In this document: positions 20,407 to 43,132 of the stretch, in pieces
Layout of the letters: the number at the start of each line of letters is the position of its first letter
Numbering within the stretch: the stretch's first letter is position 1
Origin: Candidatus Latescibacterota bacterium
Lineage (GTDB): Bacteria; Latescibacterota; UBA2968; UBA8231
Length of the DNA: 64,000 nt
Assembly (NCBI GenBank): GCA_965219385.1
Contig: CBDCNM010000002.1
Coordinates: 1,296,936-1,360,935 of the forward strand
Direction of reading: 5' to 3'
Translations under genes and position numbers: made by a program
The notes under the pieces: generated by a model
What the model was told of the DNA's origin: nothing
Seen by the model: the letters and a program-made list of their open reading frames with translations, nothing else
Database searches by the model: none

Positions 20407-20485
20407 TAACGTTATGCCGGTTTGCGAACCCGCGCAGCGGGTTGCCCGAAGGGCCGAATGGCCCGAAGCCGGGGGCACGATGTTA
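20407..20485 (-). repeat. attC-like site a (distal end)
   Basis: TAACGTT..GCGAACC..TGTTA, 79 bp. Confidence 0.88.
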
Positions 20486-20530
20486 TTGGATGTGCTAGCC
20501 GGGTTTGGATGCCACCAGGAAGCGCCGGTT

Positions 20531-21118
20531 TCATCCTGATGGCGGGAATATTCTGTAGACCAGCAACTCCAGGGTTGTTCCATCCGCCTTCTTCTGGGCC
20601 TCTCTCCCGAAGACTTCACCACCGAGAGCCTCCGGTATCCTTATGCTGGCTTGGTTGCGTCGATCAACTGGGTAGGTCAGGTATTTGTAAGCCAGATTAC
20701 TATCAGCCCACCGCTTTAAACCAACGATGGCTTCCTTGCCGTAACCATTTCCGTGCGCTCCCCTCTTGATCCATATTCCCAGTTCCGGCGTTTCGGGTCT
20801 CCCCTCTCCGTGAAGGCCGCAACAGCCAAGGAATTCTCCTGAATCACGTCGTGCAACGACTGCCTGATAGTTGTCTCCCGCCTTCATCCTCTCAACTGCG
20901 GCGTCGATGAAGGTGAATGTATCATCGATGATCTCACTTGGGCAGGGAGCCATGTACCGTGTGATTTCCGACGTAAACTCTCTGAATATGTCCTCGGCAT
21001 GTATGCGGGAGATTGAAGATAGTCTGAGTCTTTGGGTAGCTATCTCCAACGTCAGCCAGTCAATGTCCTGGCCCTGCTTTGCAGTGAATGTACTGGACTC
21101 GTTGCACGACATTGTCAT
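20531..21118 (-). CDS. Cassette: RimJ/RimL-type GNAT acetyltransferase
   Basis: TQRLRL, FLGCCGL, ELGIWI..HGNGYGKEA, N.ASIRIPEALG; start approximate. Confidence 0.85.
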   Translation of the reverse strand: MTMSCNESSTFTAKQGQDIDWLTLEIATQRLRLSSISRIHAEDIFREFTSEITRYMAPCPSEIIDDTFTFIDAAVERMKAGDNYQAVVARRDSGEFLGCCGLHGEGRPETPELGIWIKRGAHGNGYGKEAIVGLKRWADSNLAYKYLTYPVDRRNQASIRIPEALGGEVFGREAQKKADGTTLELLVYRIFPPSG

Positions 21119-21690
21119 TGCTGACTCCGAAATCCTCCAAATGGGCGCCCTGGGCTTCTTGACTGGCATGTCCAATAACGTCTTCCGGTTTGCGAACCCG
21201 GAGTGAAACGGAGAGTTGCCCGATAGGGCCAAGCAGCGTATGCCGCGCGGCGCAAAACCGCTGTGTTATGAGATGTGTGTCCCGAAATTCCCTCTATAGC
21301 GGAAACAGACGGAAATTTAAATCTGCTCTGTGCCTTGTTATTGGTTTCTTTCGAGAAGAGGCCGGCGCGTCTTAGAATGATTACAATCCCAATCCAGCCA
21401 ACTAACATGCATATTACTGCGAAGAGCAAAATTGAGAGTCGTATCGGACCCGGATCAGCAGCAAGAGTCGGAATGACCGGCCATAATCCTGGAAGCACTA
21501 GCAATCCGACGAATAGGGGGAGTAGGAGGATTTTGCTCTGCACCAGAACTACAATCCCAACTGAGATGCATATTGCTGCCGAGAGTATAATCAAGATCCC
21601 TGTCGGACTCAGATCTGCAGCAAAACCCAGCAAGCCAATCCCTACGTTTGACGCAAGCAATAAGACGAACAAAGAGACCTTACTCGGCAT
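21115..21690 (-). CDS. Cassette: hypothetical four-TM membrane protein (ORF reads through site b)
   Basis: Four hydrophobic segments; AGGAG upstream. Confidence 0.6.
   Translation of the reverse strand: MPSKVSLFVLLLASNVGIGLLGFAADLSPTGILIILSAAICISVGIVVLVQSKILLLPLFVGLLVLPGLWPVIPTLAADPGPIRLSILLFAVICMLVGWIGIVIILRRAGLFSKETNNKAQSRFKFPSVSAIEGISGHTSHNTAVLRRAAYAAWPYRATLRFTPGSQTGRRYWTCQSRSPGRPFGGFRSQQ
21176..21268 (-). repeat. attC-like site b
   Basis: TAACGTC-CGGTTTGCG..CGCAAAACCG-TGTTA, 93 bp. Confidence 0.88.
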
Positions 21691-21759
21691 GGGGATTCTC
21701 CTTAGTTGAGAGGTTCCGATTCCAAACGGAGTGGCTAGCTTTTTGCTTCACATGTCCTC

Positions 21760-21842
21760 TAACGTTTTCCGGTTTGCGAACCCCGAAGGGGTTTCCCGCA
21801 GGGCCAAGGCGCGTAGCGCCGTAGCGCAACACCGATGTGTTA
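21760..21842 (-). repeat. attC-like site c
   Basis: TAACGTT..GCGAACCCCGAAGGGG..TGTTA, 83 bp. Confidence 0.88.
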
Positions 21843-21877
21843 GCCGCCGGCCAGCGAACAGAACGTTATTCTTGTCT

Positions 21878-22277
21878 TTACCAACCGAAACTTTCAAAAA
21901 ACTGGCCTTTCTGATAGTTTTCGAGTGCCTGCCTGACATAAGGCACCATATTGGCGGGTAAATCGTGGATAGAATGCCAAGATAGGTCATCACATTTGTC
22001 TGGCTCGGCGTTCACGATGTCTCCGCTCCATCTGGAGACGGAAAGGAAGAATGACACCCGTTCATCCTCAGCCTTCCGGTGCATAACACCGACCACTTCG
22101 ATGTCCGAGGGCTGAATCTCAATACCTGCCTCCTCCTTCGCTTCCCTGATCGCCGCTGCCTTGACCTCCTCTTTGCCATCGATGTGCCCAGCAATCACGC
22201 TGTAGTTGCCATCCTCATATCCAGTATCGAAGCGTCTCAATAGCAGGATTTCATTGTTGTTGTTGGTTAGAAAAACA
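21878..22277 (-). pseudogene. Cassette: NUDIX hydrolase, 5' end truncated by ISL3
   Basis: Nudix box GHIDGKEEVKAAAIREAKEEAG, NAEPDKC; frame runs into the ISL3 IR. Confidence 0.85.
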
Positions 22278-23717
22278 GGCTCGTCAGTAGAATTCGTGGG
22301 TGAATTGTGGCTCGGGTAAATCGCCAAGCTGATGGAATGAAGCGATTTGGAGTGCCTTGAAGGTGCGGCATCCGAATGCTTTTCTCACGGTCAGATTCCA
22401 TTTCAGGTTCAAGCCCTCGACCATGGCGTTGTTGAACTGCTTTTTGGCCCTGAACCAATTGAGGATGAGCTCTCGATGACGGCGTAGCCTCTTGGCGATG
22501 TCTTTCATCGGTTCGATCTTGCTTCTCATCGTGCGGAAACACCAGCGGTTGAGGAATTTCTCAGCCCAGGCAGGGTAGGTGTAGTTCCAGAAGCGCTGGA
22601 AGTCCTCCTTGAGCAGGTAGGCTCTGACCGTCCGCAGGTTCATCTTCACTAGCTCGGACCGCTTCAAAGCCTGGGGGTCGCTGAGGTTCTCCTTGCGCTT
22701 CAGGAAGCACCAGCGGCTCTTGCTCAGGACGGGATCTTGGCCCTGTTCTTTGAGTCGGCGGGCCTCTTCGGCACGGACTTTGTCGAGGGCCTTGCTGAAG
22801 GGCTGCATGAGGTGAAAGCGGTCGAGAACGTGTACCGCCGCCGGCCGCCGCTGGTCAATGACGGTGAGGTAGGCTTTCCAGATATCAGAGCAGATGACGG
22901 CAATCGGGCCGAGGAAGCTCCTCGGCTCCTGCTCGCCGGCCGCTTCTTGCTTGCGCTGGTGCTCTTGCTCCAGTTCGGTAAAGCCGTCGTCCAGGGTCTT
23001 TATCGTCCGCTTTTCGCCCCTCCACAACAGGCGGCGGTGGTGAGTGTCGATCTGGTACAGCAAGGTCAGATAATGATGGCCTTTGCGATACTGGATTTCA
23101 TCCACGCCGAGGGCCGTGACCCGGTCGAGGCGGCGATGAGCGAGCCCCTATTCCACGACGTACTGGACGGAACGGTAGACTGGGTCCCAACGGGTCCGGA
23201 AGGAGCGCGCCCCCTCGATCCACGACCGCTTCTTGGCCCACGGTGCCAGGAAGCAGCGGTAGAGGTCGGTCAGGGGGTGCTTGCCCGTGCTCCAGGGGAC
23301 CTTCTCGACGACCACCCGGCCGCAGGCTTTGCAGGCCACCCGGCGCATGCGATACACCAGAAAGACCGGGAACCCCCAGAGCGGAACAAACTCGAACAGC
23401 CGTGCCTCGGTGGCCGTGTCATAGGTGGGGGACAACGGACCGCAGCCGCTGCACTCCGCCCTGGCGTTCTTTCGGGGCCTGAGGCTCACCATGATCCTGC
23501 CGTGTTCGTCAAAATGACCCCCCTCAAACACAAACCGCTTGAACTTCGTGCATCGGTTCAGTACTGTGATCAGGCGCATCATTCCCTCCAAAGTAGGTCG
23601 GGATCGGTATTGATGGACCGTCCCAACATACCGGGAATGATGCGCCGGTGCTATCCTCGGCCTCCTCTATGCCGTCGGCGAGCCGGCTCTTTCACCCACA
23701 GATTCTCCGGAGGAGCC
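22278..23717 (-). mobile_element. ISL3-family IS; transposase (22284-23591) broken by an in-frame TAG at 23148-23150
   Basis: 27-bp imperfect IRs starting GGCTC (22278-22304, 23691-23717; 22/27 match); GVDEI, CSDIW, LDRFH, EGLN motifs; no target duplication. Confidence 0.88.
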
Positions 23718-23792
23718 ATTATTTCTATTCGCAGGCTTGCAACAGTTCCAGAAGGTTGCGCCATACTCAGAACATTTCACAGGAGGAACTAA

Positions 23793-24038
<246 letters not shown>

Positions 24039-24093
24039 TGAAAGCTCGACAAGAGTAAGAGTTGATTGAATGAATTGGATTGGAGGAATAGGA

Positions 24094-24570
24094 ATGAAAC
24101 TACGACACCTGATGGGGATGTTAATGCTTTTGGCGATGACAGCCGCTCGCTCAGAACAGCAAGAAAACGCGACGGCACCAAAAACCGCCGCAACCGAGAC
24201 GGTGTACCTGAATGGCCGAATCTATACACAGGACAAAGATCTGCCTTGGGCCCAGTCAATCATCACGATAGGTGACAAAATCGTTTTTGTCGGCTCTACC
24301 CAGGATGCCTTGCAATACGCCGCCGGAGACAGCAGGCGCGTGGACTTGAAGGGGCAATTCGTGATACCAGGTATAATTGACGCACACACACCCCCCGGCT
24401 TGATTAGCATGTCGGGTGACCTGTCTGGGATAGATGCAGCCGCTGGAGAGAACGAAAAGCCTTCAAGACCGATAGGATGCCATCCAAGCCAAAGGAGGCG
24501 ACGCTAGCTTGGTTACAGCAGTACGCAGACGATCACCCGTTTGATCTCATGATCTTACAGGGGACCTGGA
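24094..24570 (+). pseudogene. N-terminal fragment of a YtcJ-like amidohydrolase
   Basis: Signal peptide, YLNGRIYT, IVFVGS, DLKGQFVIPGIIDAH; frameshifted and truncated. Confidence 0.7.
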
Positions 24571-24678
24571 AGGATTTCGGCGCGTTTCAGAGGTCAACCT
24601 GGTACTTCTGCCACCCGTCAGTCCTCCGTAGCAGCGCTACTGCGGAGGACTGACGCCCGAACATGCGCTATTACCTGA

Positions 24679-26928
<2,250 letters not shown>

Positions 26929-27198
26929 TCTCAGAATGTTGCGGTACGGGTCGTAGGCGCTGTAGAACGGCGCGTAGTAGTGGTCGTGCAGCGCCGTGCG
27001 GTTGTTGGTCCAGAACAGCTCGTCTTCGGGCAGGTTGAGCGCGTCCGTCAGGCTCATGGCGCCCAAGTAGCCGTAGCGGCGGCAGTACTCCTCGTGCATG
27101 GGGACGGCGAAGCGGTGCAGGTCGGCTAGGGCTTCGTCGTAAGTGATGGAGTAAACCCAGCGCTTGCCGTATTTCCATGGACAGATGCTCAGACTCAT
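26929..27198 (-). pseudogene. Fragment of a polysaccharide-deacetylase-like gene
   Basis: WKYGKRWVYSITYDE resembles a NodB-type N-terminal motif; short and running into katG. Confidence 0.4.
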
Positions 27199-27220
27199 GG
27201 CTGCTCATCTTTCATCTTAT

Positions 27221-27240
27221 AGAGCCTGGGCACGGTGTTA
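27221..27240 (-). repeat. Half attC-like site (right arm only)
   Basis: GCCTGGGCACGGTGTTA matches the right arms of sites g and l; left arm absent. Confidence 0.6.
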
Positions 27241-27304
27241 AGCGATTTCACGAGTACGCGAGTTGGTCCCGACCATGTCCTCCGACACGAGTTAGACGAA
27301 ATGC

Positions 27305-28099
27305 TCATGCCATCTCTGCCACCATCCACTGCATGGGCCGCCGCCGCATGACCCGTTTAAACGGGAGATTTCCGGGTTCAGCAAGGAAGCAGAGAATCTC
27401 ACCGGATGTGGAGGGCAGCATCATTGCCACATGGAGGCCGTCGCGCCAGGTGCACGGCCATTTCGGGGCGCCTATCACAACGAGGTCGCAGTTGGACTGT
27501 ACATGGCCATCGCAGATGAGCGGTTGCATCGTCGTGACAAACGAGATGTGTGATGGCCCGTCAGTGGTATCCTCGGCCAGACCGAACAGTTGGCGGACTC
27601 CTACCTGAACCGAGTGTCCCCGCCGGACATGCTCTTTCAGTTCCTCCAAATCGCCGTGTACGCGATTGCCATCGGCATCGTGTTCGTAGACCGTACGCCA
27701 GCGGTCGCAGATAAACCACCGATATATCCCGTACGGGTAGGCCTGGCTCTCATCCACGCGCACATCACGCCACATCCACTTCACGTGGCAGAAGGTTCCG
27801 GAATCGTCGTATTTGAAGATGCTGATGTATGGTTGCTGTATGGCTTGGCCGCGGTGTACATAGCTATGGTGGTGGCTCATGAGTCCTGCAAACGCGCCAC
27901 CCCCACCGGCATAAGTCTGCTGGAAATAAAGCGTTTCCTCGTACAGATCTGTGGTCATGTAAAGCCTGAGATCTGCGCCTCGGCGTACCGCTGCCGCCAA
28001 CTCGGACACCGCGCCATGGGATGAGGTCAGGTCCGTCTGCTGTTCAAGGGCAAGCGTCCAGTTGTGTCCCATTGTGCGTGTTTCCTTTCGCAGTGACAT
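27305..28099 (-). CDS. Probable cassette: hypothetical protein with two similar halves
   Basis: 264-aa ORF; GAVSELAAAVRRGADLRL and GDLEELKEHVRRGHSVQV are internally similar. Confidence 0.7.
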   Translation of the reverse strand: MSLRKETRTMGHNWTLALEQQTDLTSSHGAVSELAAAVRRGADLRLYMTTDLYEETLYFQQTYAGGGGAFAGLMSHHHSYVHRGQAIQQPYISIFKYDDSGTFCHVKWMWRDVRVDESQAYPYGIYRWFICDRWRTVYEHDADGNRVHGDLEELKEHVRRGHSVQVGVRQLFGLAEDTTDGPSHISFVTTMQPLICDGHVQSNCDLVVIGAPKWPCTWRDGLHVAMMLPSTSGEILCFLAEPGNLPFKRVMRRRPMQWMVAEMA

Positions 28100-28371
28100 G
28101 TCTAACTAATGAGTGGTGCATAGTCGCAAGCGCAACGAGCGGCCAGATCTAGCGAGGCGCTCACGCCGCCGGCTGTTCTTCGATGCCGTCGAGGATGATG
28201 TCGAGCTGGTCCTCGGGGTGGGTTTCGCGGCCTATAGGTTGATCTCTTTACGAGATGTATTTACGTTGATGAAACGGAGGTACCTCGAGTGTGTGTGCAT
28301 CCGGTCGACGAACCATTGGCGCGGGGCAGCTCGCACCGCGTGCTCCAGTCTCTCTGACTTCAGACACTGAA

Positions 28372-28519
28372 TTCTTCCAGTGCCGCAGCCAAACTCGAGG
28401 ACCGGTCCACCATACTCATTGGCTAGATCGAGGTAGAAGTCCACGTCCACCAGATCGTCTTTGACGCTGTATGCGGCGTCGTAATGCTTCGCTCCCGGAC
28501 TGTAGGAATCATCAATCAT
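28372..28519 (-). pseudogene. Cassette: truncated class I SAM methyltransferase
   Basis: DVDFYLDLA..GGPVLEFGCGTGRI then similarity is lost. Confidence 0.7.
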
Positions 28520-28561
28520 GGTTTGTTGTCCATCGTACTGTTAGAGTCAATCCATTTCAGG

Positions 28562-28652
28562 TAGGGTTCGCCGGTTTGCGAACCCCGAACTTGTCGAAGA
28601 GTTGCCGGAGGCTAAGCCGCCAAATGCGCCACAGAGTAACACCAACGTGTTA
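28562..28652 (-). repeat. attC-like site e (left core mutated to TAGG)
   Basis: CCGGTTTGCGAACCCCG..GTGTTA. Confidence 0.75.
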
Positions 28653-28662
28653 GGCATTGCGG

Positions 28663-29217: not shown

Positions 29218-29240
29218 GATTCAATTGACCGCGTTGCGCC

Positions 29241-29306
29241 TAACGTTCTGTGGGTTAATGAACTGGCGTAGCCGCCTGAAGGCGGCGCAGCATTAACCCG
29301 CTGTTA
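29241..29306 (-). repeat. attC-like site f (shortest, 66 bp)
   Basis: TAAC..GGGTTAATG..CATTAACCC..GTTA. Confidence 0.85.
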
Positions 29307-29335
29307 TCGGTCGTGGAAGCTCCGTGGCTGGTCGC

Positions 29336-29816: not shown

Positions 29817-29920
29817 CAGAGTCCTCCAAATCAGGTTTACAACAGACTGGTCGGTTTCGACCAACTTAGAGTAATATACGGCAGTTCCACACGAAAGTCT
29901 TCGTCAGATTCCATGACCGC

Positions 29921-29993
29921 TAACGTTCAGGGCCTCCGAACCGCGTAGCGGTTGCGCAAAGGGCGCAAGCCCGAAGCCGGGAGCACGGTGTTA
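29921..29993 (-). repeat. attC-like site g
   Basis: TAACGTT..CGAACCGCGTAGCGGTT..GTGTTA, 73 bp. Confidence 0.88.
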
Positions 29994-30665: not shown

Positions 30666-30744
30666 TAACGTTCTCCGGTGTGCGAACCGGCGTAGCCGGT
30701 TTAGGCGAAGGCCGTTTAGGCCGTAGCCGCACACCCACATGTTA
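30666..30744 (-). repeat. attC-like site h
   Basis: TAACGTT..GGTGTGCG..CGCACACC..TGTTA, 79 bp. Confidence 0.88.
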
Positions 30745-31716: not shown

Positions 31717-31793
31717 TAAAGTTTTCGCCGTGTCCGAACCGCGAAGCGGTTGCCGAAGGGCCGAATGGCCCGCAACTGGGCACGGACGTGTTA
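31717..31793 (-). repeat. attC-like site i (core TAAA)
   Basis: CCGTGTCCGAACCGCGAAGCGGTT..GGGCACGG..GTGTTA. Confidence 0.82.
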
Positions 31794-32627: not shown

Positions 32628-32709
32628 TAACGTTCTCAGCACCCACGAACCTGGCGAAGCCAGGTTGGGCGTAGGCCCGAAAGCCCCGGAGCCGTGGGTG
32701 CACGTGTTA
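32628..32709 (-). repeat. attC-like site j
   Basis: TAACGTT..GCACCCACG..CGTGGGTGC..GTGTTA, 82 bp. Confidence 0.88.
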
Positions 32710-32772: not shown

Positions 32773-33723
32773 CTACATGAGATAGCGAAGCGCATCCTTG
32801 GCCCGCTGCAACTTGGTTGTATCATCAACCAGACAAGCCAGCCTGTAGAAGCCATAGAGCGTTTTAATCCGGTGAGTAAGCCTTGCGCGATCCCTCCTCA
32901 GGGTGCCGGATTCCCAATAGACGGGGGTGCAGGGATCTTCTTCAGCCGGCTCTTCGGTCCCCAGTTCGTCCTCGACATTCGGTAGGGATCTCCACAGGCG
33001 AACATGACGATGGTGGGCCTCAAGTCCTTTCTGCGCCAGGTCAACGTAGCCACACTCAGACAGATCGATCAGCGAAGCGGCATGGTTGATAATGTGCCAC
33101 AATCCCCCGAATCCCTGTCTCCGTTCGGCAGCTGTCTCAAGGAGCTCATCCAACACTGCTTCGATCATGCCCTCCAGATTGGAATACGGTCGAAAATCCG
33201 GATGTTCCGGCAACGCGATCATGTCTCCGTCGATCCGACCTTTTTCCCTCCCGTAGTAACCGCTGCCAGCTGATGCTTGGTCAAAGCCCCCGATCAATCT
33301 GCATATGCCATCAATGATAGACGATGTTGCGTGCTGGGGGTACTCCTGGAGCGCCCGAATGGACAGAGAGGCGAAGATCACGTTGTGACCTGAGGAGCGT
33401 GTTCCTCCGATGTTCCTGGATAGGACCTGGGCGATGCGGTCAATCTGATCTACCTGCGTGTCTTCGTCTGGGTAGGGCACAAACAGGTCCGATGTTGTGA
33501 TGGATCCACCCTCGCCTGGGTCAAATGCCGACTCTCCCTTGAGGACACGATCCAGTTCCTTCTCTATACCTGCATGAACCTTCCTGTCTAGTTCACGGTG
33601 TTCCTCACTGAAGAGACAGCCAGCGACAAGGGTAGCGCCCAAATGTCCCGTCATGGTATCCACAAGGTGAGCTCGGCTTAGTCCCCACAGCCCCTTTTCC
33701 AGATACTCAGGTCTAACCGCCAT
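32773..33723 (-). CDS. Cassette: hypothetical His-motif protein
   Basis: 316-aa ORF with GGAGA RBS; GHLGA, SGHNVIF, WHIINHAA, THRIK. Confidence 0.75.
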   Translation of the reverse strand: MAVRPEYLEKGLWGLSRAHLVDTMTGHLGATLVAGCLFSEEHRELDRKVHAGIEKELDRVLKGESAFDPGEGGSITTSDLFVPYPDEDTQVDQIDRIAQVLSRNIGGTRSSGHNVIFASLSIRALQEYPQHATSSIIDGICRLIGGFDQASAGSGYYGREKGRIDGDMIALPEHPDFRPYSNLEGMIEAVLDELLETAAERRQGFGGLWHIINHAASLIDLSECGYVDLAQKGLEAHHRHVRLWRSLPNVEDELGTEEPAEEDPCTPVYWESGTLRRDRARLTHRIKTLYGFYRLACLVDDTTKLQRAKDALRYLM

Positions 33724-33817
33724 ATATCTTCTCCACGCCTTGACGGAGTTAGTCAGGCAACTCCCATATGGCTTTCCGTCGCACTGCGAACAACATGGCG
33801 CCTTGTACCTTCAATAA

Positions 33818-33995
33818 TGGGCTTTAAAGACTTGCCGTCATCTCGGACTAGTGGACAAATTAGACGTACTCTGGATGAGGCCGATGACGCCTGAAGGTAG
33901 CGATCTTGTAGGTTAGATGGGCCCCCCGCCTTCTTTGCCCATACCGAGGAGTATCTGAGCCCATTGAGGCTGTATCTACAAGGTCGGTAAGCAAG
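33818..33995 (+). ncRNA. Predicted IS110 bridge RNA (ends approximate)
   Basis: LTG ATGACGCCT 33884-33892, RTG GTTAG 33912-33916, LDG GAGTATCT 33949-33956, RDG TACAAG 33977-33982, in the expected order within stem-bounded loops. Confidence 0.8.
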
Positions 33996-34044
33996 GGTCC
34001 AAGGTCAGGGGACCAGAGTCTACAATATAACCCAAGGAGTAGTC

Positions 34045-35040
34045 ATGCACCAATCCCGTCCCGTCGGCATCGATGTGAGCGCCCGCACCTTGGAGGTAGC
34101 CCTGGCGGGCCCGAACCCAAGCCGAGCGAGCGCCACGTTTGACAACACCCCCGCTGGCCATCGTCGGTTGATCCAATGGATCACCAAACGCGGTCAATCG
34201 GCCCGGGTGGGCCTGGAAGCGACCGGGGTCTATAGCTTAGAGATAGCCTTAGCCCTGCATCGTCATCCCCGTACCGAGGGGATGGTGGTCAATCCTAAAG
34301 CCATCAAAAACTATGCCGGCGCTCGCCTACAGCGGGCCAAGACCGACCCGGTCGATGCGCAGGTCCTCCTGGATTTTGTCCAGCGTATGGACTTTGTCCC
34401 CTGGCAGCCGCCCACTCAGGCGGTACTGCAGTTGCAGGCGATCACCCGGCGCATGACCCAGTTGAAGGTCGAAGTCAACCGCGAAACCAATCGCTTACAC
34501 GCCGAGGGATATCGTGTCAGCTCCACCAACTTGATTGAGCGTGATATCCAGGTCCATATCCGCCACATGCAGCGCCGGATCCAGCGTTTGGAAGAAGAGG
34601 GTATGGCACTCGTCCTATCGGTGGTCGAGCTGAGTGAAAAATTTCACCATCTGCTCTCCATCCCGGGCATTGCCCAAGCTAGTGCACTGCGGCTGATCGC
34701 TGAGTTGGCCGTATTGCCGGCCGATATGAAAGCGCCCCAATGGGTAGCGCAGGCCGGGTTGGATCCGCGACCCTATGAATCGGGTAACTCCATCCATCCG
34801 CCGCGACGCATCACCAAAGCCGGTAATAAGTATCTGCGCGCCGCCTTATATATGCCCGCCCTGGTGGCCATTCGCCATCAACCCCAGGTCAAAGCCTTTT
34901 ATGACAAGCCCATCGCCGCCGGCAAAAAGCCGCTACAGGCCATTGTCGCCGTGATGCGAAAACTGGTGCATGCTATTTGGGGCGTGTGGACCTACAACCA
35001 GGATTTCGACGGACAGAAATTTTATAAAATGGCCGCATAA
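34045..35040 (+). CDS. IS110 recombinase/transposase
   Basis: DEDD residues in GIDVS, LEATG, KTDPVDA; ESG serine; GNKYLRAALY, AVMRKL. Confidence 0.95.
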   Translation: MHQSRPVGIDVSARTLEVALAGPNPSRASATFDNTPAGHRRLIQWITKRGQSARVGLEATGVYSLEIALALHRHPRTEGMVVNPKAIKNYAGARLQRAKTDPVDAQVLLDFVQRMDFVPWQPPTQAVLQLQAITRRMTQLKVEVNRETNRLHAEGYRVSSTNLIERDIQVHIRHMQRRIQRLEEEGMALVLSVVELSEKFHHLLSIPGIAQASALRLIAELAVLPADMKAPQWVAQAGLDPRPYESGNSIHPPRRITKAGNKYLRAALYMPALVAIRHQPQVKAFYDKPIAAGKKPLQAIVAVMRKLVHAIWGVWTYNQDFDGQKFYKMAA

Positions 35041-35065
35041 GACCCTTGACTTTTAAGAGAGTATC

Positions 35066-35141
35066 TAACGTCTCAGTGCCCCCCGAACCGCGCAGCGGTT
35101 GGGCGAAGGCCCTTGTGGCCTGAGCCGGGGGCACGGTGTTA
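35066..35141 (-). repeat. attC-like site l (IS110 target)
   Basis: TAACGTC..GTGCCCCC-CGAACCGCGCAGCGGTT..GGGGGCAC-GGTGTTA. Confidence 0.88.
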
Positions 35142-35179
35142 GACGAAGGGCATTCCCGAATATCGACCTACGCCTTGGC

Positions 35180-35578
35180 CTAAACGAAAACTGAGGGTGA
35201 AACGCCAAATCGCTTGGACAAAGCACGTATCTGCCGAACGTTCAACTCCCGCCTCCCACACAGAATCTCTGAAACCACTCCTTGTGAACCCACCTCCGGC
35301 AAATCCGTCTGCCTCAATTCATGCTCCTCCATGAGAAATCGAAGGGATTCCGCTCCCTCCGTCTTGGGCATGGGATGGTGTTGTTCTTCCCAAGCATGGA
35401 CAACGGCGCCCAGCGTATCGAGCAGAGAATAAAGTGGATGCTGCTCATCCGTGCCCACTTCATCAACCAAGCTGTTGAGGCGCTCCAAGGCCAAATCGTA
35501 TTCCTGCTCGTTCTGAATCTTGAGTAGGGCACTCACTTGCGTCCATGATCGCTGAAGCTGTGGCGTAATGACACTCAT
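35180..35578 (-). CDS. higA: Cassette: HigA antitoxin (HTH)
   Basis: LRFLMEEHEL.Q.DLPEVGSQGVVSEIL.G.RELN..QI..LS.RF. Confidence 0.9.
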   Translation of the reverse strand: MSVITPQLQRSWTQVSALLKIQNEQEYDLALERLNSLVDEVGTDEQHPLYSLLDTLGAVVHAWEEQHHPMPKTEGAESLRFLMEEHELRQTDLPEVGSQGVVSEILCGRRELNVRQIRALSKRFGVSPSVFV

Positions 35579-35862
35579 GTGGTCCATCCTCCACGGTCGT
35601 AGGCTTGATGTGTAAGCACATGACGGATGTATACTTTGCCCCGATTGAAGTGAATAGAGACAATCAGGCGGTACTTGTTGCCGGCGATGTTAAACACGAC
35701 GAATTCTCCGACTTTATCGGCCGATGGAAAAGTGTGGCGCAAGGCCGCGAAACTGCTAAACTGAGTCTGCTGCATGATTTTGAACCAGCGACTCAGTGCC
35801 TTCTTACTGTCGGGATGCTGCGTCCAAAACACCCGGAGGGCTTTCCGTGAGATGACGTGCAT
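35575..35862 (-). CDS. higB: Cassette: HigB toxin
   Basis: MHVISRKAL, TFPSADKVG, VFNIAGNKYRLI, VLTH..YD; ATGA overlap with higA. Confidence 0.92.
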   Translation of the reverse strand: MHVISRKALRVFWTQHPDSKKALSRWFKIMQQTQFSSFAALRHTFPSADKVGEFVVFNIAGNKYRLIVSIHFNRGKVYIRHVLTHQAYDRGGWTT

Positions 35863-35871
35863 ATAGACAAA

Positions 35872-35897
35872 ATATCGCAAATTGCGATATATCGCAA
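35872..35897. promoter_or_regulatory. Probable HigA operator (overlapping palindromes)
   Basis: ATATCGCAA-A-TTGCGATAT overlapping TTGCGATATATCGCAA, just upstream of higB. Confidence 0.7.
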
Positions 35898-35953
35898 CTC
35901 TCCTCTGCTCCGCTGCCCATTGACCCGACCGAACGCCCTTACTGCCTTTCGGC

Positions 35954-36045
35954 TAACGTTCTTGTGTTTACGAACCCGAGCGAATGCGAGGGGTTGCCCG
36001 GCAGGGCCAAGGAGCGAGGCGACGCAGCGCAACACCGTGCTGTTA
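35954..36045 (-). repeat. attC-like site m
   Basis: TAACGTT..CGAACCC..GCAACACCGTGCTGTTA, 92 bp. Confidence 0.85.
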
Positions 36046-36079
36046 TGGGCCGTGGCACGCAATGGCCTTCATTGAAGGT

Positions 36080-36313
36080 TCAGGAGGTGGTAGGCGAAAC
36101 GTCTCTAACGTGTAAGATCTCACCCGCCAAGGGAGGACGTATTGATGAATCTTCCAGGGTCAGAACCGCGATCGTGGTGCCCTGAGTATCCACGAACTCT
36201 ACCTCCGATGCCTCGTCGTCCGCGTATCTATGCACCACCGTGCCCACATCCCCAGCCACCAGACCGTGCTCTACGATAGACTCCTCAAGAACCACCAGAT
36301 CCAATTCAGTCAT
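36080..36313 (-). CDS. Cassette: DUF4926 family protein
   Basis: ELDLVVL..GL.AGDVGTVV...EVEFVD..G.TIAVLTL. Confidence 0.85.
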   Translation of the reverse strand: MTELDLVVLEESIVEHGLVAGDVGTVVHRYADDEASEVEFVDTQGTTIAVLTLEDSSIRPPLAGEILHVRDVSPTTS

Positions 36314-36327
36314 TTCATCCTCCTTGA

Positions 36328-36661
36328 TCAGGCTGGATAGGCTGTCACCAGACGAGGCCGAGCGGAGCCAGGTTCAACAATCCAGACCGTCCGTATCCGA
36401 ACACTCGACCCTGATGGGGTTTTCACACGACCATCCACAACATACTTGGTACCATGGTGTGTCTGCATAACTTCGAAGACCTGCTCATTGCGCGCGATGG
36501 GATGCTAAATCAGCTTCCAGAACAGAGGGATCCTCTTGTCGATACCCAACACCACGGAAGAATCTCGCCTTTGCTCGACCTACGGCATGTACATCGGAAA
36601 GCAGATATTGCTCGACTTTCTCGGTTGGTATCGCCGCATTTTTTCCGTTAGGCAACTTCAT
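36328..36661 (-). pseudogene. Cassette: DUF6883-like putative toxin, frameshifted near 36500
   Basis: MKLPN...K...YLL...H..G..KARFF, then GTKYVVDG..TPSG....RTVWI......PRLVTAYPA in another frame. Confidence 0.72.
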
Positions 36662-36688
36662 AGAATCCAATTCTTATACCATGGCACA

Positions 36689-36781
36689 TAACGTTATGTC
36701 GGTTTGCGAACCCCGAGCTTGTCGAGGGGTTGCCGCAGGCCAAGCCGCCCACAGGGCAGCGCAGCGCAAAACGATGTGTTA
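36689..36781 (-). repeat. attC-like site n
   Basis: TAACGTT..GGTTTGCGAACCCC..CGCAAAACGATGTGTTA, 93 bp. Confidence 0.88.
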
Positions 36782-36819
36782 TGTGCTGTGCCTTGCTCCC
36801 TGTGGGGGTGATATCAATC

Positions 36820-37611
36820 CTAGATAGCTATGCACGTTATGGTATCGTGTGCTCGTCCAGTACAGTCACAGTGCACATATTCAATGCCATCGATTACTAT
36901 TCGCCGATTCCTTGGATACCTCTGGATTAAATCACCGCCTCGGTAGAACCGTCCGTCATATCGCCGAAATAGTACAGTTCGCCCACCGGTCTCAACGAAC
37001 GCCTCTACCAATTCTCCGCCGTTCGGCTCTGAAAGATCTACATCCAATACTCGGAGACAGTGGTGCGTGTTGCCGCCGATTGTTACATCGTATACGCCTG
37101 CTCCAATGCCCTCCCCGGCGGCGGTCTTGTACGAACCGTCATGTTGACGCCTGTAGCGACCGTCATCGAAGAGTCTGCGACTTGACGGTTCGCCCCAGTC
37201 GTCTTCGAATCCGGCATCGGTGCTTGAGTAGAACACCTTCGTATTGTCCTCGTTCTTGATTACGCCAAGCCATCTTACCTCGTCATCGTCGATTACGCCG
37301 TACATATACCCGGGGTCGAATTCGACAGACCAGTGGCAACAATTAGACCATTGATCCAGCCGAATCTCAATGCAGTCCGAGTCATGGAGCCTCGCGCGGC
37401 CCGTAGCGGCCATTTCCGTAACAGCAACAAGCTCTCGCGTCAGCGAATCATAGGCTGCCCAAGTGGTCCTTTCGCCAAGTGTTGGGACGGCAAACCACCA
37501 CTGCAACTCCAGGCAATCAATCTCATCGATTCTCTCTGAGCTCTCGACGATTCTGATGTCCGGTCGCGTAAGCGGGAACGGATGAGTGGCGCTTCCATCG
37601 GTTGTGCACAT
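36820..37611 (-). CDS. Cassette: hypothetical protein
   Basis: ORF with GGAGG RBS, bounded by sites n and o. Confidence 0.7.
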   Translation of the reverse strand: MCTTDGSATHPFPLTRPDIRIVESSERIDEIDCLELQWWFAVPTLGERTTWAAYDSLTRELVAVTEMAATGRARLHDSDCIEIRLDQWSNCCHWSVEFDPGYMYGVIDDDEVRWLGVIKNEDNTKVFYSSTDAGFEDDWGEPSSRRLFDDGRYRRQHDGSYKTAAGEGIGAGVYDVTIGGNTHHCLRVLDVDLSEPNGGELVEAFVETGGRTVLFRRYDGRFYRGGDLIQRYPRNRRIVIDGIEYVHCDCTGRAHDTITCIAI

Positions 37612-37712
37612 CACTTCGCCTCCTCCAGTCCGGGCAGGACTACGAAAATCCAGTAATACCGTGTGAGTGACCCGAAATTGACCTGACAGGTAATAACCTA
37701 GGGCATGGCACA

Positions 37713-37790
37713 TAACGTTTTCCGGTTTGCGAACCCCGAAGGGGTTGCCCGATAGGGCCGTATGGCCCGTAGCCGGGCACGGGCGTGTTA
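37713..37790 (-). repeat. attC-like site o
   Basis: TAACGTTTTCCGGTTTGCGAACCCCGAAGGGGTT..GTGTTA; contains the stop codon of the upstream gene. Confidence 0.88.
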
Positions 37791-38672
37791 GCGGAAGTCG
37801 CCCCCCGGGTTGTCACTCATTCTTCTGATCTCCCTAAGATACTCTGTGACATTCCGATCAAGCTCAAGAGGATAGGCGCAGCCTAAATGTTCTCCAACCT
37901 TGGATGCCAGCCTCCCGAACACTTCGGCTGTTTTGAACATAGCGTTCCAGTTCTCTTCAAGGTCAGCCCCCGCGAATGTCGCCTCGATATCCGACCAAAG
38001 GTCGGATTCCACCTGTTTCTTGAACCATCTGCCAAAGGCACCCGGATTGGACTTCCAGCTGTTCTGCATACCAATGTACCAGGCGATCGCAGTTCTCAGA
38101 TAGTGATGATGTAGAGAGTCGTCAAGCATATACTTGGCAAAGAATAACTCGTCCCGGAATAGGTACTTGGCTACGTAAGTTATGTTCCACCAGAAGTGGT
38201 GAACAAGCTCCTCGTATTCCCCTTCAGTTGGCTGTTTTGTCAAATACTGAGTGTAGGTCGGCGATACTGCTCCTTCGGCAAGGCCATCCTTGTCGAGAAG
38301 GACTTGATAGCCCATGTCGTTCGTATAGCCTCCATGTTCTCTGCTATCCTCTTCCATGGCTTCCGACAACATGATGTGGAAATCGATCCTTGGGACGTCC
38401 TTGAATATCACAAGGCGCCAAACGTCGTTCTCGTCCCCAATAACAGGTTTATAGGGTTCGCGGACTAAGACTTCCCCAAATATCCTTAGCCACTCGTCCC
38501 CCTCCAGGAAAGGCTGCAGGTCTTCCACAAATAGTTCGATGTCGTAGTCAGACAACGTGTCAATAGGAACGCTGGGATTTGCACGAGTACTAGTAAGGAT
38601 TACTGCTCGAACGTTCTCGTTCCCCTTGGCCCACTCCGTCACTTCTTTCGCCATGTTCTTCGTGGTATTCAT
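37788..38672 (-). CDS. Cassette: aminoglycoside 6-adenylyltransferase (AadK/ANT(6)) family protein
   Basis: VRAVILTSTRAN..D.LSDYDIE, RIDF, VLLDKDG, FWW...YVAK.L.RDEL. Confidence 0.85.
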   Translation of the reverse strand: MNTTKNMAKEVTEWAKGNENVRAVILTSTRANPSVPIDTLSDYDIELFVEDLQPFLEGDEWLRIFGEVLVREPYKPVIGDENDVWRLVIFKDVPRIDFHIMLSEAMEEDSREHGGYTNDMGYQVLLDKDGLAEGAVSPTYTQYLTKQPTEGEYEELVHHFWWNITYVAKYLFRDELFFAKYMLDDSLHHHYLRTAIAWYIGMQNSWKSNPGAFGRWFKKQVESDLWSDIEATFAGADLEENWNAMFKTAEVFGRLASKVGEHLGCAYPLELDRNVTEYLREIRRMSDNPGGDFR

Positions 38673-38712
38673 CGAGTCCTATTAGGATTCAACAGCGTCC
38701 GATATCGAGCGA

Positions 38713-38780
38713 TTTCCGCTAACTGCTTTTAGCCGCCGTGCTCATTCTCTCATAAGACGCCATATGGTGAGGCGTTAGCG
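38713..38780 (-). other. Atypical internal junction (attI-like core or aberrant short attC)
   Basis: TAACTGCTT identical to the attI core; left flank matches the right flank of site o at 14/15. Confidence 0.6.
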
Positions 38781-38790
38781 TCAGGTTCAT

Positions 38791-39303
38791 TCAAAGGACC
38801 ATACCGTACCGGATCTCTCGCAGTTCAAAACCCTCTCGCTTTTCAGTCTTCGTTAAACCCTCGGTTTTGAATCCGAATTTCTCGTAGAAGGATCTGGCTC
38901 TTTGATTGGTTTCCAAAACCCAGACTTTTACGGAGCCAAAGCCATCTCTCTCCAGGGCTGTCAAAGCGTTTTCTATCAGTGTTCTGCCGATTCCGCGATT
39001 CCAGAAATCTTCCAATACGTAGATCGAATATACCTCTCCAGTCAGGAGTCTGTTTTCCTCTTCACCTCGGAGAGGACCAAAGCTCGAGAATCCAACGATT
39101 CTCACTTCATCTTCTGCTACCAGAACACTACGCATCTGATCCTTCAGAATTTGAGTCCACGCCAGCTCCCGTTTCGCAACCGACAGCCCTTCGAGATACG
39201 AATCAGGAATCTGTCCTCGATAAGTGGCCTGCCAGGAACGAACATGGACTTCAGCGATACCCCTCACATCATCGGAATGGGCACTTCTGAATATTCTGGA
39301 CAC
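38791..39303 (-). CDS. Cassette: GNAT acetyltransferase
   Basis: HVRSWQATY.G, GEVYSIYV, GIGRTL, WVLETNQRARSFYEKFGF. Confidence 0.92.
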   Translation of the reverse strand: MSRIFRSAHSDDVRGIAEVHVRSWQATYRGQIPDSYLEGLSVAKRELAWTQILKDQMRSVLVAEDEVRIVGFSSFGPLRGEEENRLLTGEVYSIYVLEDFWNRGIGRTLIENALTALERDGFGSVKVWVLETNQRARSFYEKFGFKTEGLTKTEKREGFELREIRYGMVL

Positions 39304-39360
39304 AAAAAGCTATCTCCTAAATCGGCCGGCGCCTTCTCTCGTGCTGACTTGCATGACCGA

Positions 39361-39454
39361 TAACGTTCATCCGTTACCGAACCCCCGGAGCGTAGCGAAG
39401 GGGGTTGCCCGCAGGGCCAAGGCGCGTATGCGCCGCAGCGGGAACGGGGTGTTA
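39361..39454 (-). repeat. attC-like site p
   Basis: TAACGTT..CCGTTACCGAACCCC..GGGAACGGGGTGTTA, 94 bp. Confidence 0.88.
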
Positions 39455-39531
39455 AAGGACGTGGGATACTATCTCCCCTCAAGGTGTATCTTGAAACCAA
39501 ATTCCTATAACTGTCCCAATTCATGCGCTTG

Positions 39532-40308
39532 TTAGCGCTGTTGCGTACATTCTGGTATATCGATCAGCAACATGCCTTCTTCTTTTAAAGGATATTCAAC
39601 CAGAATGTCACCTGATTTTGAGACAAATAAAGCACCACCGAAGTAACCGCCCATTTCGTCGTCTGTCAACTGATTGACCAACATCATATTGACGCCGGCC
39701 TCTCGCGCTCGCCCGGCATAAAGGTACTTTTCCTGTCTATGCCACATAGCCATATCGGCCACATCTTCATCAAAACTGCGAGCCATAGGAAACAACAACC
39801 AGTCTGGATTTAATGCTTTCACACGAGATAAGCAGGTATTATTGAATAGATCGCCACAAAGCAAAAAGGCAGCGGTTCCAATCGGTGTAGAGGCGATTGG
39901 CACCTCGTCTCCCTGGGCATAAATCGGAAAAGGACAAGGCCGATTATGCCAGTGATGCCAACACGGATCGATACGACGATATCGCATACGAATGACACCA
40001 TCAGGACCAATTAGAATAGCCGTGTCATAGAGGCGATCCTCATTTCGTTCAAAAAGCCCCGTTGCCAGCCATATTCGGCATCTGGCTGCAAGCTGGCAAA
40101 GTGCCTCTGAAGCAGCTCTGGGAATAGATTGACCAAGAGACAGATCATAATCGGGGTTCCCGGTGTTCACTAATCCTGTAATCGCTGCTTCGGAAAAAAC
40201 AACCATCTCTGCATTAACATTTGCGGCATCCTCAGTCATTTGCATCAAGCCGGAGAGAGTATCCTGCCGATTTAATTTTACTTGGGGGACACCAAGAGCC
40301 ACTTTCAC
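39532..40308 (-). CDS. Cassette: carbon-nitrogen hydrolase (nitrilase superfamily)
   Basis: VVFSEAAITG, LYDTAILIGPDG, YRR, LLCGD; catalytic Lys position appears to be Arg. Confidence 0.85.
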   Translation of the reverse strand: MKVALGVPQVKLNRQDTLSGLMQMTEDAANVNAEMVVFSEAAITGLVNTGNPDYDLSLGQSIPRAASEALCQLAARCRIWLATGLFERNEDRLYDTAILIGPDGVIRMRYRRIDPCWHHWHNRPCPFPIYAQGDEVPIASTPIGTAAFLLCGDLFNNTCLSRVKALNPDWLLFPMARSFDEDVADMAMWHRQEKYLYAGRAREAGVNMMLVNQLTDDEMGGYFGGALFVSKSGDILVEYPLKEEGMLLIDIPECTQQR

Positions 40309-40434
40309 GCTATATGGTTCCTCTTAAGCTTGAACAGCCCAAACTCATTATTAAACTGCGAAAATTCAGTATCTCTCTTTTAAATTTGGAGGCATACTGA
40401 ATAGATATCTGTCTCACCTTCATCCCATGTCCTG

Positions 40435-40511
40435 TAACGTTTCGCCGTGCTCGAACCGCGAAGCGGTTGGGCGAAGGGCCGTATGGCCCGTAGCCGGGCA
40501 CGGTCGTGTTA
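40435..40511 (-). repeat. attC-like site q
   Basis: TAACGTT..CCGTGCTCGAACCGCGAAGCGGTT..CGGGCACGG..GTGTTA. Confidence 0.88.
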
Positions 40512-40523
40512 AGAGAAGTGCGT

Positions 40524-41234
40524 TCAATCCAATCGTTCGAGGACGGGCTTTAGATCAAGCAAAGATCGGATAACAAGTCCCGAACTCACATCCACGTGAC
40601 CGATTCGGTCGATGAGCACGGAAATCATATTCGCTCGTCTCGCACCCATAATGTCCCACCTTGGATTATCTCCGACAAACAGGCATTCCTCTGGTTTGCA
40701 TCCAAAATGATCCAATGCCCGGCGAAACATAGGTTGGGCGGGCTTCCGCCACCCTACATCCGAACAAAAGATAGCCACCTCGCATCGCGTCGAAAGGCCA
40801 TGTCGCCGCAGTTCTTCAAACCAGGGCTCGCTCGGTGAACCCCAAGGACAGTTCGACAGGATTCCTACGCGGCAGCCATCCGCCAGATGCGCATCTAGAG
40901 CCGGAAGGGTGTCTTCATAGATCTTGGCAATAGAAAGGATTGGCGTGAGGAAGGCACGACAGATCGGCAGCCACTCTTCCTCCGAAACGCAAGGTGCGAC
41001 CGCAAAGATACGACCAAGCCTCTTGTGGAGTGGGCGAACGCGACTGTTTTTGGCTTCGTAGTTCTCAGTCGCGACACCGCGCTCGATCTCAGAATCCGAA
41101 GGCAAATCGTGTCCCGAACGCTCCAGTGCCTCTTTGGCTGCGTGAATTCCTGCCCGCAGCAAAGGAGGAAACTCTTCCCTGCGATAGTACTGGACAAGGG
41201 TGTCGCCAAGGTCAAACAGAAGAACTGGTCTCAA
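40524..41234 (-). CDS. Cassette: HAD-family hydrolase
   Basis: FDLGDTL, ILSN, GWRKP, FVGDNPRWDI.GA. Confidence 0.9.
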   Translation of the reverse strand: MRPVLLFDLGDTLVQYYRREEFPPLLRAGIHAAKEALERSGHDLPSDSEIERGVATENYEAKNSRVRPLHKRLGRIFAVAPCVSEEEWLPICRAFLTPILSIAKIYEDTLPALDAHLADGCRVGILSNCPWGSPSEPWFEELRRHGLSTRCEVAIFCSDVGWRKPAQPMFRRALDHFGCKPEECLFVGDNPRWDIMGARRANMISVLIDRIGHVDVSSGLVIRSLLDLKPVLERLD

Positions 41235-41271
41235 ACCTGAAACTCCTACTCGTCTCTTAAAGCATTTCGCT

Positions 41272-41356
41272 TAACGTCTCGCCGGTTTGCGAACCCGCGA
41301 AGCGGTTGCCGAAGGCCAAGGCGGCGTAGCCGCCGCAGCGCAACACCGTGCTGTTA
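41272..41356 (-). repeat. attC-like site r
   Basis: TAACGTC..CGGTTTGCGAACC..CGCAACACCG..TGTTA, 85 bp. Confidence 0.88.
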
Positions 41357-41453
41357 CACGATTGCGGCTCTGCAACGCACGAAATAAACACGCAAACGCC
41401 TATGATGGCTGGGCGATTGCCTTGGCAATCAAGAGTGTCGGTACAATTCTCTC

Positions 41454-42164
41454 TCAACACCTCTCCACCGATTTTGCTACAGAACCAAGCGGTTCAGAGA
41501 TCTCGGCAAGTTGGAATCCACTTCTGATCAAGGTATTGAAGTACGTTGAAAGCGTTCGGTGGTGGCTGCCAAGCGTGCCACACATCCCGATTCCATCGGA
41601 GTACCATTTGCCTTCAAGGCCATACCGTGAAACACGCAATGCCTTGAAATTTCCCGCTTCGTCCAACTCCTCCTGTGGATTCTCTGCATTGAACGGAGTG
41701 AAAAAGCACGGATGTAGAATTGTGAAGATGAACTTGCCATTGTCGAGAAGTATCCGACGGACATTGAACAATGTTGCCGTTAGGTCAGGGATATCCATGA
41801 GTGTCATGTTGCAAATAACAGCATCCATGCTGGCGTCGGACACCTGATTCAGCGATTGTGCATCGTCCAGGACATACGTGATGCCGTGGTCATCAGAATG
41901 CTCCTTTGCATGCCGCAACAGCATCTGTGAAATGTCCACACCTGTAACGAGAGCGCCCCGACTCGCTAGGATGCGAGACAGATACCCTTCACCGCATCCC
42001 AAGTCACATACACTGATTCCTTGGACATCGCCCAGCATAGTCAGCATGATTTCTACCGAGGGCTGGATACGCCTATCCCTATCCGGAACATTCCTATCCA
42101 GCCAGTTGAGATAGAAATCACCTGCCTTGTCATATTCAGATTCTGTCAACTCATCGATGCGCAT
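41454..42164 (-). CDS. Cassette: class I SAM methyltransferase
   Basis: DLGCGEGYLSR, GVDIS, LMDIPDL, HPCF, HRTLSTY. Confidence 0.9.
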   Translation of the reverse strand: MRIDELTESEYDKAGDFYLNWLDRNVPDRDRRIQPSVEIMLTMLGDVQGISVCDLGCGEGYLSRILASRGALVTGVDISQMLLRHAKEHSDDHGITYVLDDAQSLNQVSDASMDAVICNMTLMDIPDLTATLFNVRRILLDNGKFIFTILHPCFFTPFNAENPQEELDEAGNFKALRVSRYGLEGKWYSDGIGMCGTLGSHHRTLSTYFNTLIRSGFQLAEISEPLGSVAKSVERC

Positions 42165-42227
42165 AGTCTCACTCCCGTTGGGGCATGGGATCTAAGAATG
42201 ATGCAAACCCGTCACGCCGCTTTCGTG

Positions 42228-42310
42228 TAACGTTACTGCGGGCTGCGAACTTGCCGCAGGCAAGTTAGGTCGGAGGCCCGAAAGGGCCGGAGCCGTAGCC
42301 CGACGTGTTA
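42228..42310 (-). repeat. attC-like site s (first cassette)
   Basis: TAACGTT..CGGGCTGCG..CGTAGCCCG..GTGTTA, 83 bp. Confidence 0.88.
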
Positions 42311-42337
42311 CCTGCCGTTAGCCTCTCCGAGTGCGGA

Positions 42338-43030
42338 TCACTTCACGTCCTTGAATCTGTAGAGAGGGCGTGGAGCATTTCTATTTAGGTCGATTCCAGG
42401 AGCCCCAACGGACTCCCAACCAGAGGTGCAGACTGGCACTCTCACGTCTGTTGGCGGTTCCCATTCGGGCCAAGGATCACAGAACGGCAACTCCCCGGAC
42501 TCCATGGCCTGAATTGCCTTCCGCCCTTCCTTATAGAAGCTCTCCGTTTCCTCTGGCAGGTATACGCCTGTCTCCAGTCGGTCTGATATTCCCACCTCAT
42601 CCTTCCAGTGCCACGTGAAATCTGGTCGTACAATGACATCGAGGGCATTGTCAGTCGTATCGAATCCAATCTCAGTTCGCTGAAACGACGACTCAAGGTC
42701 GATCTTCCACCCCTTGAATCTCCCATCGGGCCAATTGAAATGATCCTCGTAGTATGAGGGGACACCTGTCCCAGCATCAAAGAACAGCAGGACGGCGTGA
42801 GCTCGCCCAGGAAACATGAACCGCAGTACGTTCATCCTGCTTGTCCAGGGGTTCAACCGCGCTCGGGCAAGTCGATCGAAACGTTCGACAATAGTGCCCG
42901 CCGGCTGGCACAGAATCACAAGATCACTCTTATCGCAGATCACAACGTGTGGGCGGCCCCACGAAATCCAATCGTGGTGGCCCACATAACGGTGAATAAC
43001 CAGGTCATTTGGTTGCCAATGATCACACAT
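42338..43030 (-). CDS. First cassette: DUF402-family protein
   Basis: GWKIDLE.....GFDTTDNALDVIVRPD..W.WKDE. Confidence 0.75.
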   Translation of the reverse strand: MCDHWQPNDLVIHRYVGHHDWISWGRPHVVICDKSDLVILCQPAGTIVERFDRLARARLNPWTSRMNVLRFMFPGRAHAVLLFFDAGTGVPSYYEDHFNWPDGRFKGWKIDLESSFQRTEIGFDTTDNALDVIVRPDFTWHWKDEVGISDRLETGVYLPEETESFYKEGRKAIQAMESGELPFCDPWPEWEPPTDVRVPVCTSGWESVGAPGIDLNRNAPRPLYRFKDVK

Positions 43031-43092
43031 GATCCGATCCTACGTGATATTCACAGAATTTGGCATCGCCTGGTTATCGTGTTTTTGGGCAA

Positions 43093-43132
43093 TAGCAGGT
43101 AACTGCTTGTACCCGAACAATTGGTTCGGGTA
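43093..43132 (-). other. attI-like site (core TAAC 43100-43103) with adjacent palindrome
   Basis: T-AGCAGG-TAAC complements the right flank of site s (11/13) but has no attC body; overlaps TACCCGAAC-AATTG-GTTCGGGTA. Confidence 0.78.

Follow-up and report, generated by a model that had tools for sequence, protein, structure and literature searches.

Cassette ends joined by a fixed T·G pair in an integron-like array whose recombinase lacks I2

The region described here is a 64,000-nucleotide stretch of a Candidatus Latescibacterota bacterium genome (contig CBDCNM010000002.1, positions 1,296,936 to 1,360,935; hereafter the window), which carries an integron-like cassette array (20482..43103, minus strand). 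The cassettes hold a single gene each, are mostly 0.5-1 kb long and, as in canonical integrons, are separated by attC hairpins with an AAC/GTT core. Their products include GNAT, NUDIX, GrpB, HAD and CN-hydrolase proteins, S-adenosylmethionine methyltransferases, a member of an aminoglycoside adenylyltransferase family and unknowns. The array is headed by a divergent tyrosine recombinase at 43345 and, because the cassette genes lie on the minus strand and the attI site adjoins the divergent integrase, the plus strand is the bottom strand. On this strand the end arm of a cassette begins with GTTA and its start arm finishes with TAAC; arm positions are counted from the G of GTTA (position 1). Labels such as L001 and L003 denote fetched comparison loci, and G000 is the source genome, with contigs C1 and C2.

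The recombinase (43345..44231, plus strand) is IntI-like by profile score and alignment and has no I2 insertion. Its best profile is that of the integron integrase, TIGR02249, at 180.8 bits and below the cut-off of 265; the XerC and XerD cut-offs are not reached either (133 of 335 and 132 of 330 bits, for the truncated frame). About 41 residues are absent at the place of I2 in all 18 short integrases aligned (the window protein and 17 relatives), as gaps of 31 and 10 columns against seven canonical IntI sequences. The R-K-H-R-H-Y residues of tyrosine recombinases are present in the aligned homologues, while in the window copy a frameshift near 44092-44100 precedes the last His and Tyr and puts these catalytic residues in another frame; contigs of two studies, one of which may be the source sample, span 43920-44500 free of gaps. 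A second integrase copy at G000:C1:888232 has an open frame of 323 codons. The nearest relatives (77-88% identity) belong to Candidatus Latescibacterota genomes, and the predicted structure of the intact L001 homologue (pLDDT 82) has VchIntIA (2a3v) as its first fold match and XerA as the next. In a quick tree, which gives no order of events, a weak branch (support 76) sets off 20 array-linked I2-less proteins; IntI (100) and seven I2-less proteins without detected arrays (97) fall outside it, and the window protein is separate from the two Xer-like proteins of the genome. Some relatives (L009, L017, L020, L021, L025, L029, L035, L072, L073 and L077) are extended at the N-terminus by a domain of ~80-100 residues that has a W..P motif, and their arrays lie downstream rather than divergent; this domain is absent from the Latescibacterota, L011 and L015 proteins.

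The attI site (43086..43118, no strand assigned) is made of a crossover (R) arm whose TAA ends at 43102, a 6 base pair (bp) spacer (43103-43108) and an inverted L arm (43109-43118) that reads GAA at positions 8-10, followed by C11. These arms presumably resemble those of dif. Among 18 loci with attI candidates picked by eye, each adjoining the short integrase at the start of its array, the crossover arm has A at position 11 in 17, and 14 show the whole layout of inverted arm, 6-bp spacer ending in G and crossover arm. The 14 L arms in register all have GAA at 8-10, followed at position 11 by C (12) or T (2). Such a difference between the R and L arms at position 11 of a double-stranded site points to base reading. 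Two more arm-like sequences lie next to attI (43124..43161, plus strand): one repeats the L arm in inverted form (43124-43132), the other is close to the consensus (43151-43160). Both also occur in L001-L003 and are possible accessory binding sites.

We then considered the ends of the cassettes, for which the original prediction had proposed a terminal inverted repeat proper to each cassette, with a nearly invariant T·G pair. From alignments we reproduced all eight of its match ratios (15/19, 14/16, 14/15, 15/17, 14/15, 15/17, 14/16 and 11/13). A T seven bases ahead of TAA is present at 18 of 19 left ends of sites, the exception at 35066 being the end of an IS110 insertion, and a G at position 11 at 17 of 18 right ends, the exception being 41353. 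In the bottom-strand fold the two bases meet as a T·G wobble at arm position 11 in 16 of the 17 cassettes that enter the window statistics (the row 27293/28104 was left out as mis-registered). With sites lettered by position from a to t, the pairs b/c and e/f are weak, as had been said, and so are h/i, j/k (beside the IS110 element) and p/q (with the atypical site p).

Shuffling the pairings (20,000 permutations) confirmed that true cognate ends pair far better than permuted ones. Watson-Crick pairs number 69 of 102 at positions 12-17 (permuted mean 38.3, maximum 61), 40 of 51 at positions 5-7 (mean 14.3, maximum 30) and 36 of 51 at positions 8-10 (mean 26.8, p 0.001). No signal was seen at positions 19-24 (19/102 cognate pairs, permuted mean 24.8), and the stem is therefore about 16-17 bp long. 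The best partner of an end arm is strictly its cognate start in 12 of 17 cases, is tied in one and is another start in four. Two claims of the original prediction needed narrowing. Pairing beyond the 7-bp R box is real here, but it is not new, since canonical cassettes pair over 9-11 nucleotides. The full stem was said to form only in the excised circle; this is so for the variable positions, but the T·G pair survives in chimeric array sites because T11 of the starts and G11 of the ends are constant; in most lineages the G8 pair survives there too. Matching ends tell intact cassettes from chimeric ones. With a profile made from the inner sites of the window, T·G was seen in 7 of 11 pairs from the rest of the genome, three of the 11 being plainly non-cognate, and in 9 of 18 pairs at four Latescibacterota loci. 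At L003:7566-8331 and L004:12187-13355, a one-base shift at positions 10-12 is followed by 11-12 bp more of stem.

Circle junctions built in silico fold more stably than the array sites in 14 of 15 cases, by about 6.5 kcal/mol on average, and of the two strands the bottom one has the more stable fold in 13 of 15, both as predicted. Making position 11 Watson-Crick narrows the gap between bottom and top strand from 3.8 to 3.0 kcal/mol. We accordingly dropped folding stability as the role of the wobble: with a contribution of only ~0.8 kcal/mol, it would have to act through protein recognition. Predicted folds have single-base bulges in the 3' arm at 6 of 16 window sites, in scattered places, and at 13 of 110 I2-less sites, compared with 76 of 93 canonical sites, where they sit at the known positions 13-14 and 19-21. 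Conserved extrahelical bases on the L'' arm were thus not found in the predicted folds of the window and I2-less sites. The spacer of the folded attC is asymmetric and longer on the cut strand. An inner YGA[AC] word, with its G 15-17 bases past the cut, occurs at 16 of 17 window sites and 98 of 110 I2-less sites, while at any tested offset it occurs at only 9 of 93 canonical sites; the inner attC arm and the attI L arm have the GAA(C) word in common.

Next we compared 77 loci around I2-less relatives with 82 around canonical IntI. One detector served for both; it uses only YAAC/GTTR and the inner stem, is blind to the arms beyond position 4, does not detect every site (11 of ~17 in the window) and lets some non-cognate rows into both groups. 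Rows came from 18 of the 77 I2-less and 25 of the 82 canonical loci, after nine canonical rows of L098 had been dropped for wrong register and three rows re-oriented by locus majority. L098 is an Aquabacterium array with a canonical IntI, in which another GTT, lying 12 bases inward of the true core, misled the detector. We found T·G at position 11 in 65 of 75 cassettes (17 of 18 loci) beside I2-less integrases and in 4 of 59 cassettes (4 of 25 loci) beside canonical IntI. The median stem is 18 bp in the former and 10 bp in the latter. Positions 12-17 are paired in 81% of cases in the I2-less set against a within-locus permutation mean of 45%, whereas canonical cassettes give 25%, equal to their permutation value, and pair at positions 8-10 in 73%. 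The original prediction had allowed that canonical cassettes might share both the T·G bias and the outer stem; both are absent there. The T·G signature is thus real, well above chance and specific to the I2-less class.

From a third set, of 83 loci, we obtained 15 rows (7 loci), 11 of them with T·G. The 12 Flavobacteriaceae rows include 10 with T·G, and their stem is only 14 bp long. A T·G pair at position 11 recurs in Latescibacterota, Bacillota, Bacteroidota and one Dehalococcoidia cassette, and what stays constant from phylum to phylum is this pair, followed by three or more further pairs. An earlier detector that scored the arms was circular and gave false chains, so that it was used for leads only; from it come arrays of 7-14 chained cassettes behind I2-less integrases in several Bacillota. 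When the pattern was counted in 31 related genomes, controls exceeded the signal.

Several observations bear on cassette movement. Contigs of other strains branch from the window at the TAAC of attI (43100) and of sites n (36689..36781), r (40435..40511) and s (41272..41356; the sole end arm with T rather than G at 11). The first cassettes beside attI differ in related strains, which branch at 43100, and one contig joins cassettes in a different order. Branching at TAAC together with reordered cassettes supports shuffling at the att sites. Six further runs with small word shares were discounted as evidence.

The T·G pair suggests how a recombinase without a hairpin-reading domain could choose a strand. 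We hypothesize that position 11 marks the arm and the strand to cut, standing in for I2 in an I2-less variant of the integron, and we give this reading a probability of roughly 60%. The recombinase would recognise the sequence of Xer-like arms (TTA-N3-GAA) in its two substrates, attI as duplex DNA and attC as a folded bottom strand. Within the arm, position 11 would show where to cut, as the strand cut at TAA^C has T11 in attI (A:T) and in attC (T·G) alike. The cassette end would have G rather than A, as the only base able to pair with T in the bottom fold while depriving the arm of the top fold of its T, so that the top fold would receive C11 in a C·A mismatch; the top strand would thereby go unused and cassettes would be inserted in one orientation. 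A second exchange would be made unlikely by the C or T at position 11 of the L arm and by the asymmetric attC spacer, and replication would resolve the junction. Through the variable positions of the stem, the excised circle may acquire a completely duplex arm for integration, and its release after excision may be favoured. The wobble, as the original prediction proposed, may in this way replace I2-based recognition. More broadly, we entertain the idea, at somewhat less than even odds, that Latescibacterota, Bacillota and Bacteroidota harbour a second integron class, in which a one-position code within Xer-like arms, a cut-strand T held by a wobbling G, sets strand and orientation without I2 or extrahelical bases.

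A number of findings weigh against a position-11 code. The window integrase is broken, and the array may no longer be active or may rely on the copy at G000:C1:888232. No circle junction was found in four runs, for which contigs only were available and absence cannot be shown. Five of the 17 window cassettes pair weakly, and Flavobacteriaceae keep neither G8 nor the outer stem past 14, so that GAA is not a universal part of the code. Most of the I2-less sample comes from related Bacillota, and its rows are not independent. The choice of attI candidates was made by eye; the L-arm register is missing in four of the 18, including that of this genome's second copy, and one out-of-register candidate has A11 with a 7-bp spacer. 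Finally, the enzyme could be reading either the T of the cut strand or a purine opposite it, as the sequence fits both.

The alternative that survives best, although we consider it unlikely, is that the wobble is a structural mark: a distortion at positions 10-11, made by the wobble with, in many cases, an adjoining mismatch and now and then a one-base bulge, would be bound as a stand-in for an extrahelical feature, and the strand would be set elsewhere, by the asymmetric spacer or the inner GAAC loop. Position 10 is paired in only 51% of the 75 cassettes, mostly with A opposite T on the end arm, which fits this view, as do the one-base shift at L003 7566 and L004 12187, with pairing resumed beyond it, and the greater length of the folded spacer on the cut strand. 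However, attI must be cut by the same enzyme and has a plain A:T at position 11, and the R/L difference there in double-stranded DNA suggests that the base itself is read.

It is also conceivable, with a still smaller probability, that the long complementarity reflects the way cassettes arise, through fold-back copying of one end, with the wobble as a frozen by-product that plays no part in recombination. The arms do match within each cassette and differ between cassettes, cognate pairing of 9-11 nucleotides is described for canonical cassettes in PMC2727003, and no homologous series of cassettes was found for a test of compensatory changes. Yet copying would yield A:T and not T·G with pairing resumed beyond it, the attI arms obey the same position-11 rule, and the position and identity recur in Latescibacterota, Bacillota, Bacteroidota and one Dehalococcoidia cassette.

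Far less probable is the view that these are ordinary attC sites served in trans by a canonical IntI, the short recombinase being a bystander. The GTT/AAC core, the hairpin form and the array layout are common to integrons, and the adjoining recombinase gene is broken. But no match to TIGR02249 above the cut-off was found in the genome, which is 94% complete, the sites offer no extrahelical bases for I2 to bind, the arm signature tracks the type of integrase across loci, and in 18 loci the arrays start at an attI beside the short integrase. Lastly, we ruled out that A11 is there only as the first base of a start codon, with the wobble reflecting RNA-level folding nearby: an ATG at 11-13 is seen in 8 of the 15 window cassettes checked and in 10 of the other 75 but opens the cassette gene in 1 of 15 and 1 of 75, and the G11 at the far end would be left unexplained.

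The att sites of the window all lie on the plus (bottom) strand. Site t (42228..42310), nearest to attI, has its end arm from 42307, and the cognate start arm ends at 43103. Site q occupies 39361..39454. The atypical site p (38720..38777) has no attC fold; its likeness to attI is seen over 38713-38777, its first nine bases being those of attI, followed by a TTA-N3-G arm. It seems to be a secondary site of attI type inside the array, at which a cassette was integrated. The cassette between p and o contains, at 37788-38672, a gene of the streptomycin adenylyltransferase family (PF04439). Sites o (37713..37790) and m (35954..36045) follow on either side of n, and site l (35066..35141) has been parted from its own left arm, k (33707-33717), by an IS110-family element (33713..35069, plus strand; transposase 34045-35040). 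This element sits exactly in the CTAAC core of site k/l. Its ends were deduced from the repeated CTAAC, and the genome has no second full copy with which to fix them; part of its non-coding end recurs at G000:C2:756681-756784, close to other att sites. The open reading frame at 34045, once considered as an integrase, is the transposase of this element.

Beyond it lie sites j (32628..32709), i (31717..31793, core decayed to TAAA), h (30666..30744), g (29921..29993), the short site f (29241..29306) and e (28562..28652), whose left core has decayed to TAGG. Two arm-like words in this part are off the rule: at 28104 a TAAC has neither T at -7 nor a hairpin after it, and at 27291 a plus-strand GTTA with A at 11 has the signature of a start arm but lies on the wrong strand. 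An ISL3 transposase and a catalase-peroxidase gene (24691-26928, plus strand) break the array over 22284-27250, with a partial duplicate of the start of the latter gene near 23793-24020; this block interrupts the cassette to the right of site c (21760..21842). Sites b (21176..21268) and a (20407..20485) complete the series, a being the most distal site traced. Some 25 more att-like sites lie on C1 and C2 outside the window in about ten small clusters, one of which follows the second integrase copy (C1:888232-891500). An Rfam scan of window positions 19000-45000 gave no credible match (a single chance hit, E 0.65), and no Rfam family covers the att sites of seven loci scanned; in a Flavobacteriaceae I2-less array, the Rfam DUF805 motif lies just inside a cassette start (L173:15744-15810).

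Compared with canonical integrons such as those of IntI1 and of VchIntIA with its VCR sites, the system shares an integrase beside attI, an array of single-gene cassettes, the GTT/AAC core, hairpin sites and the pairing of circle ends. It differs in having neither I2 nor extrahelical bases, in a stem of 14-18 instead of ~10 bp, and in the fixed T·G at 11, the conserved GAA arm word and the asymmetric spacer. Without I2 and without extrahelical bases, it departs from two defining properties of integrons and is hence a variant rather than a member. Pairing past 7 bp is already published, as '9-11 consecutive complementary nt' by Bouvier et al. (PMC2727003), while the fixed wobble and the outer stem were not found in print: our literature search, with subscription journals and supplements largely outside its scope, gave no account of these or of I2-less cassette arrays. 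Published studies (PMC2727003, PMC4792948) ascribe strand choice in integrons to extrahelical bases read by I2. A system without I2 needs another answer, and a position-11 code is one that can be tested by single-base changes.

With XerCD/dif, the system shares an attI of two inverted arms around a 6-bp spacer (14 of 18 loci). CTX-phi offers, according to PMC4792948, a folded single strand without extrahelical bases that is recombined by I2-less enzymes, and there replication resolves the junction in both IntI and CTX-phi recombination. Here, in contrast to both, one dedicated recombinase has its own cassette array and no host XerCD is hijacked; long branched terminal structures are a further difference. 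If our reading is true, the I2-less class, whose ancestral status is not given by the quick tree, would be a living intermediate between Xer/CTX-type recombination and IntI/attC, as the chicken-and-egg question of I2 requires. Close IntI homologues without the IntI insertion are reported from IS91 and IS3 (10.1101/542381); that subgroup of integron-like tyrosine recombinases is tied there to insertion sequence elements, whereas here we find cassette arrays. An I2-based integrase profile scores such recombinases below its cut-off, including those of Gram-positives, where integrons are thought rare, and such arrays may be searched for by a GTT-N7-A start and a C-N7-AAC end paired over 14-18 bp. 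IntegronFinder 2.0 reports (PMC9024848) one complete integron in Firmicutes (Bacillota), whereas I2-less arrays are common in that phylum.

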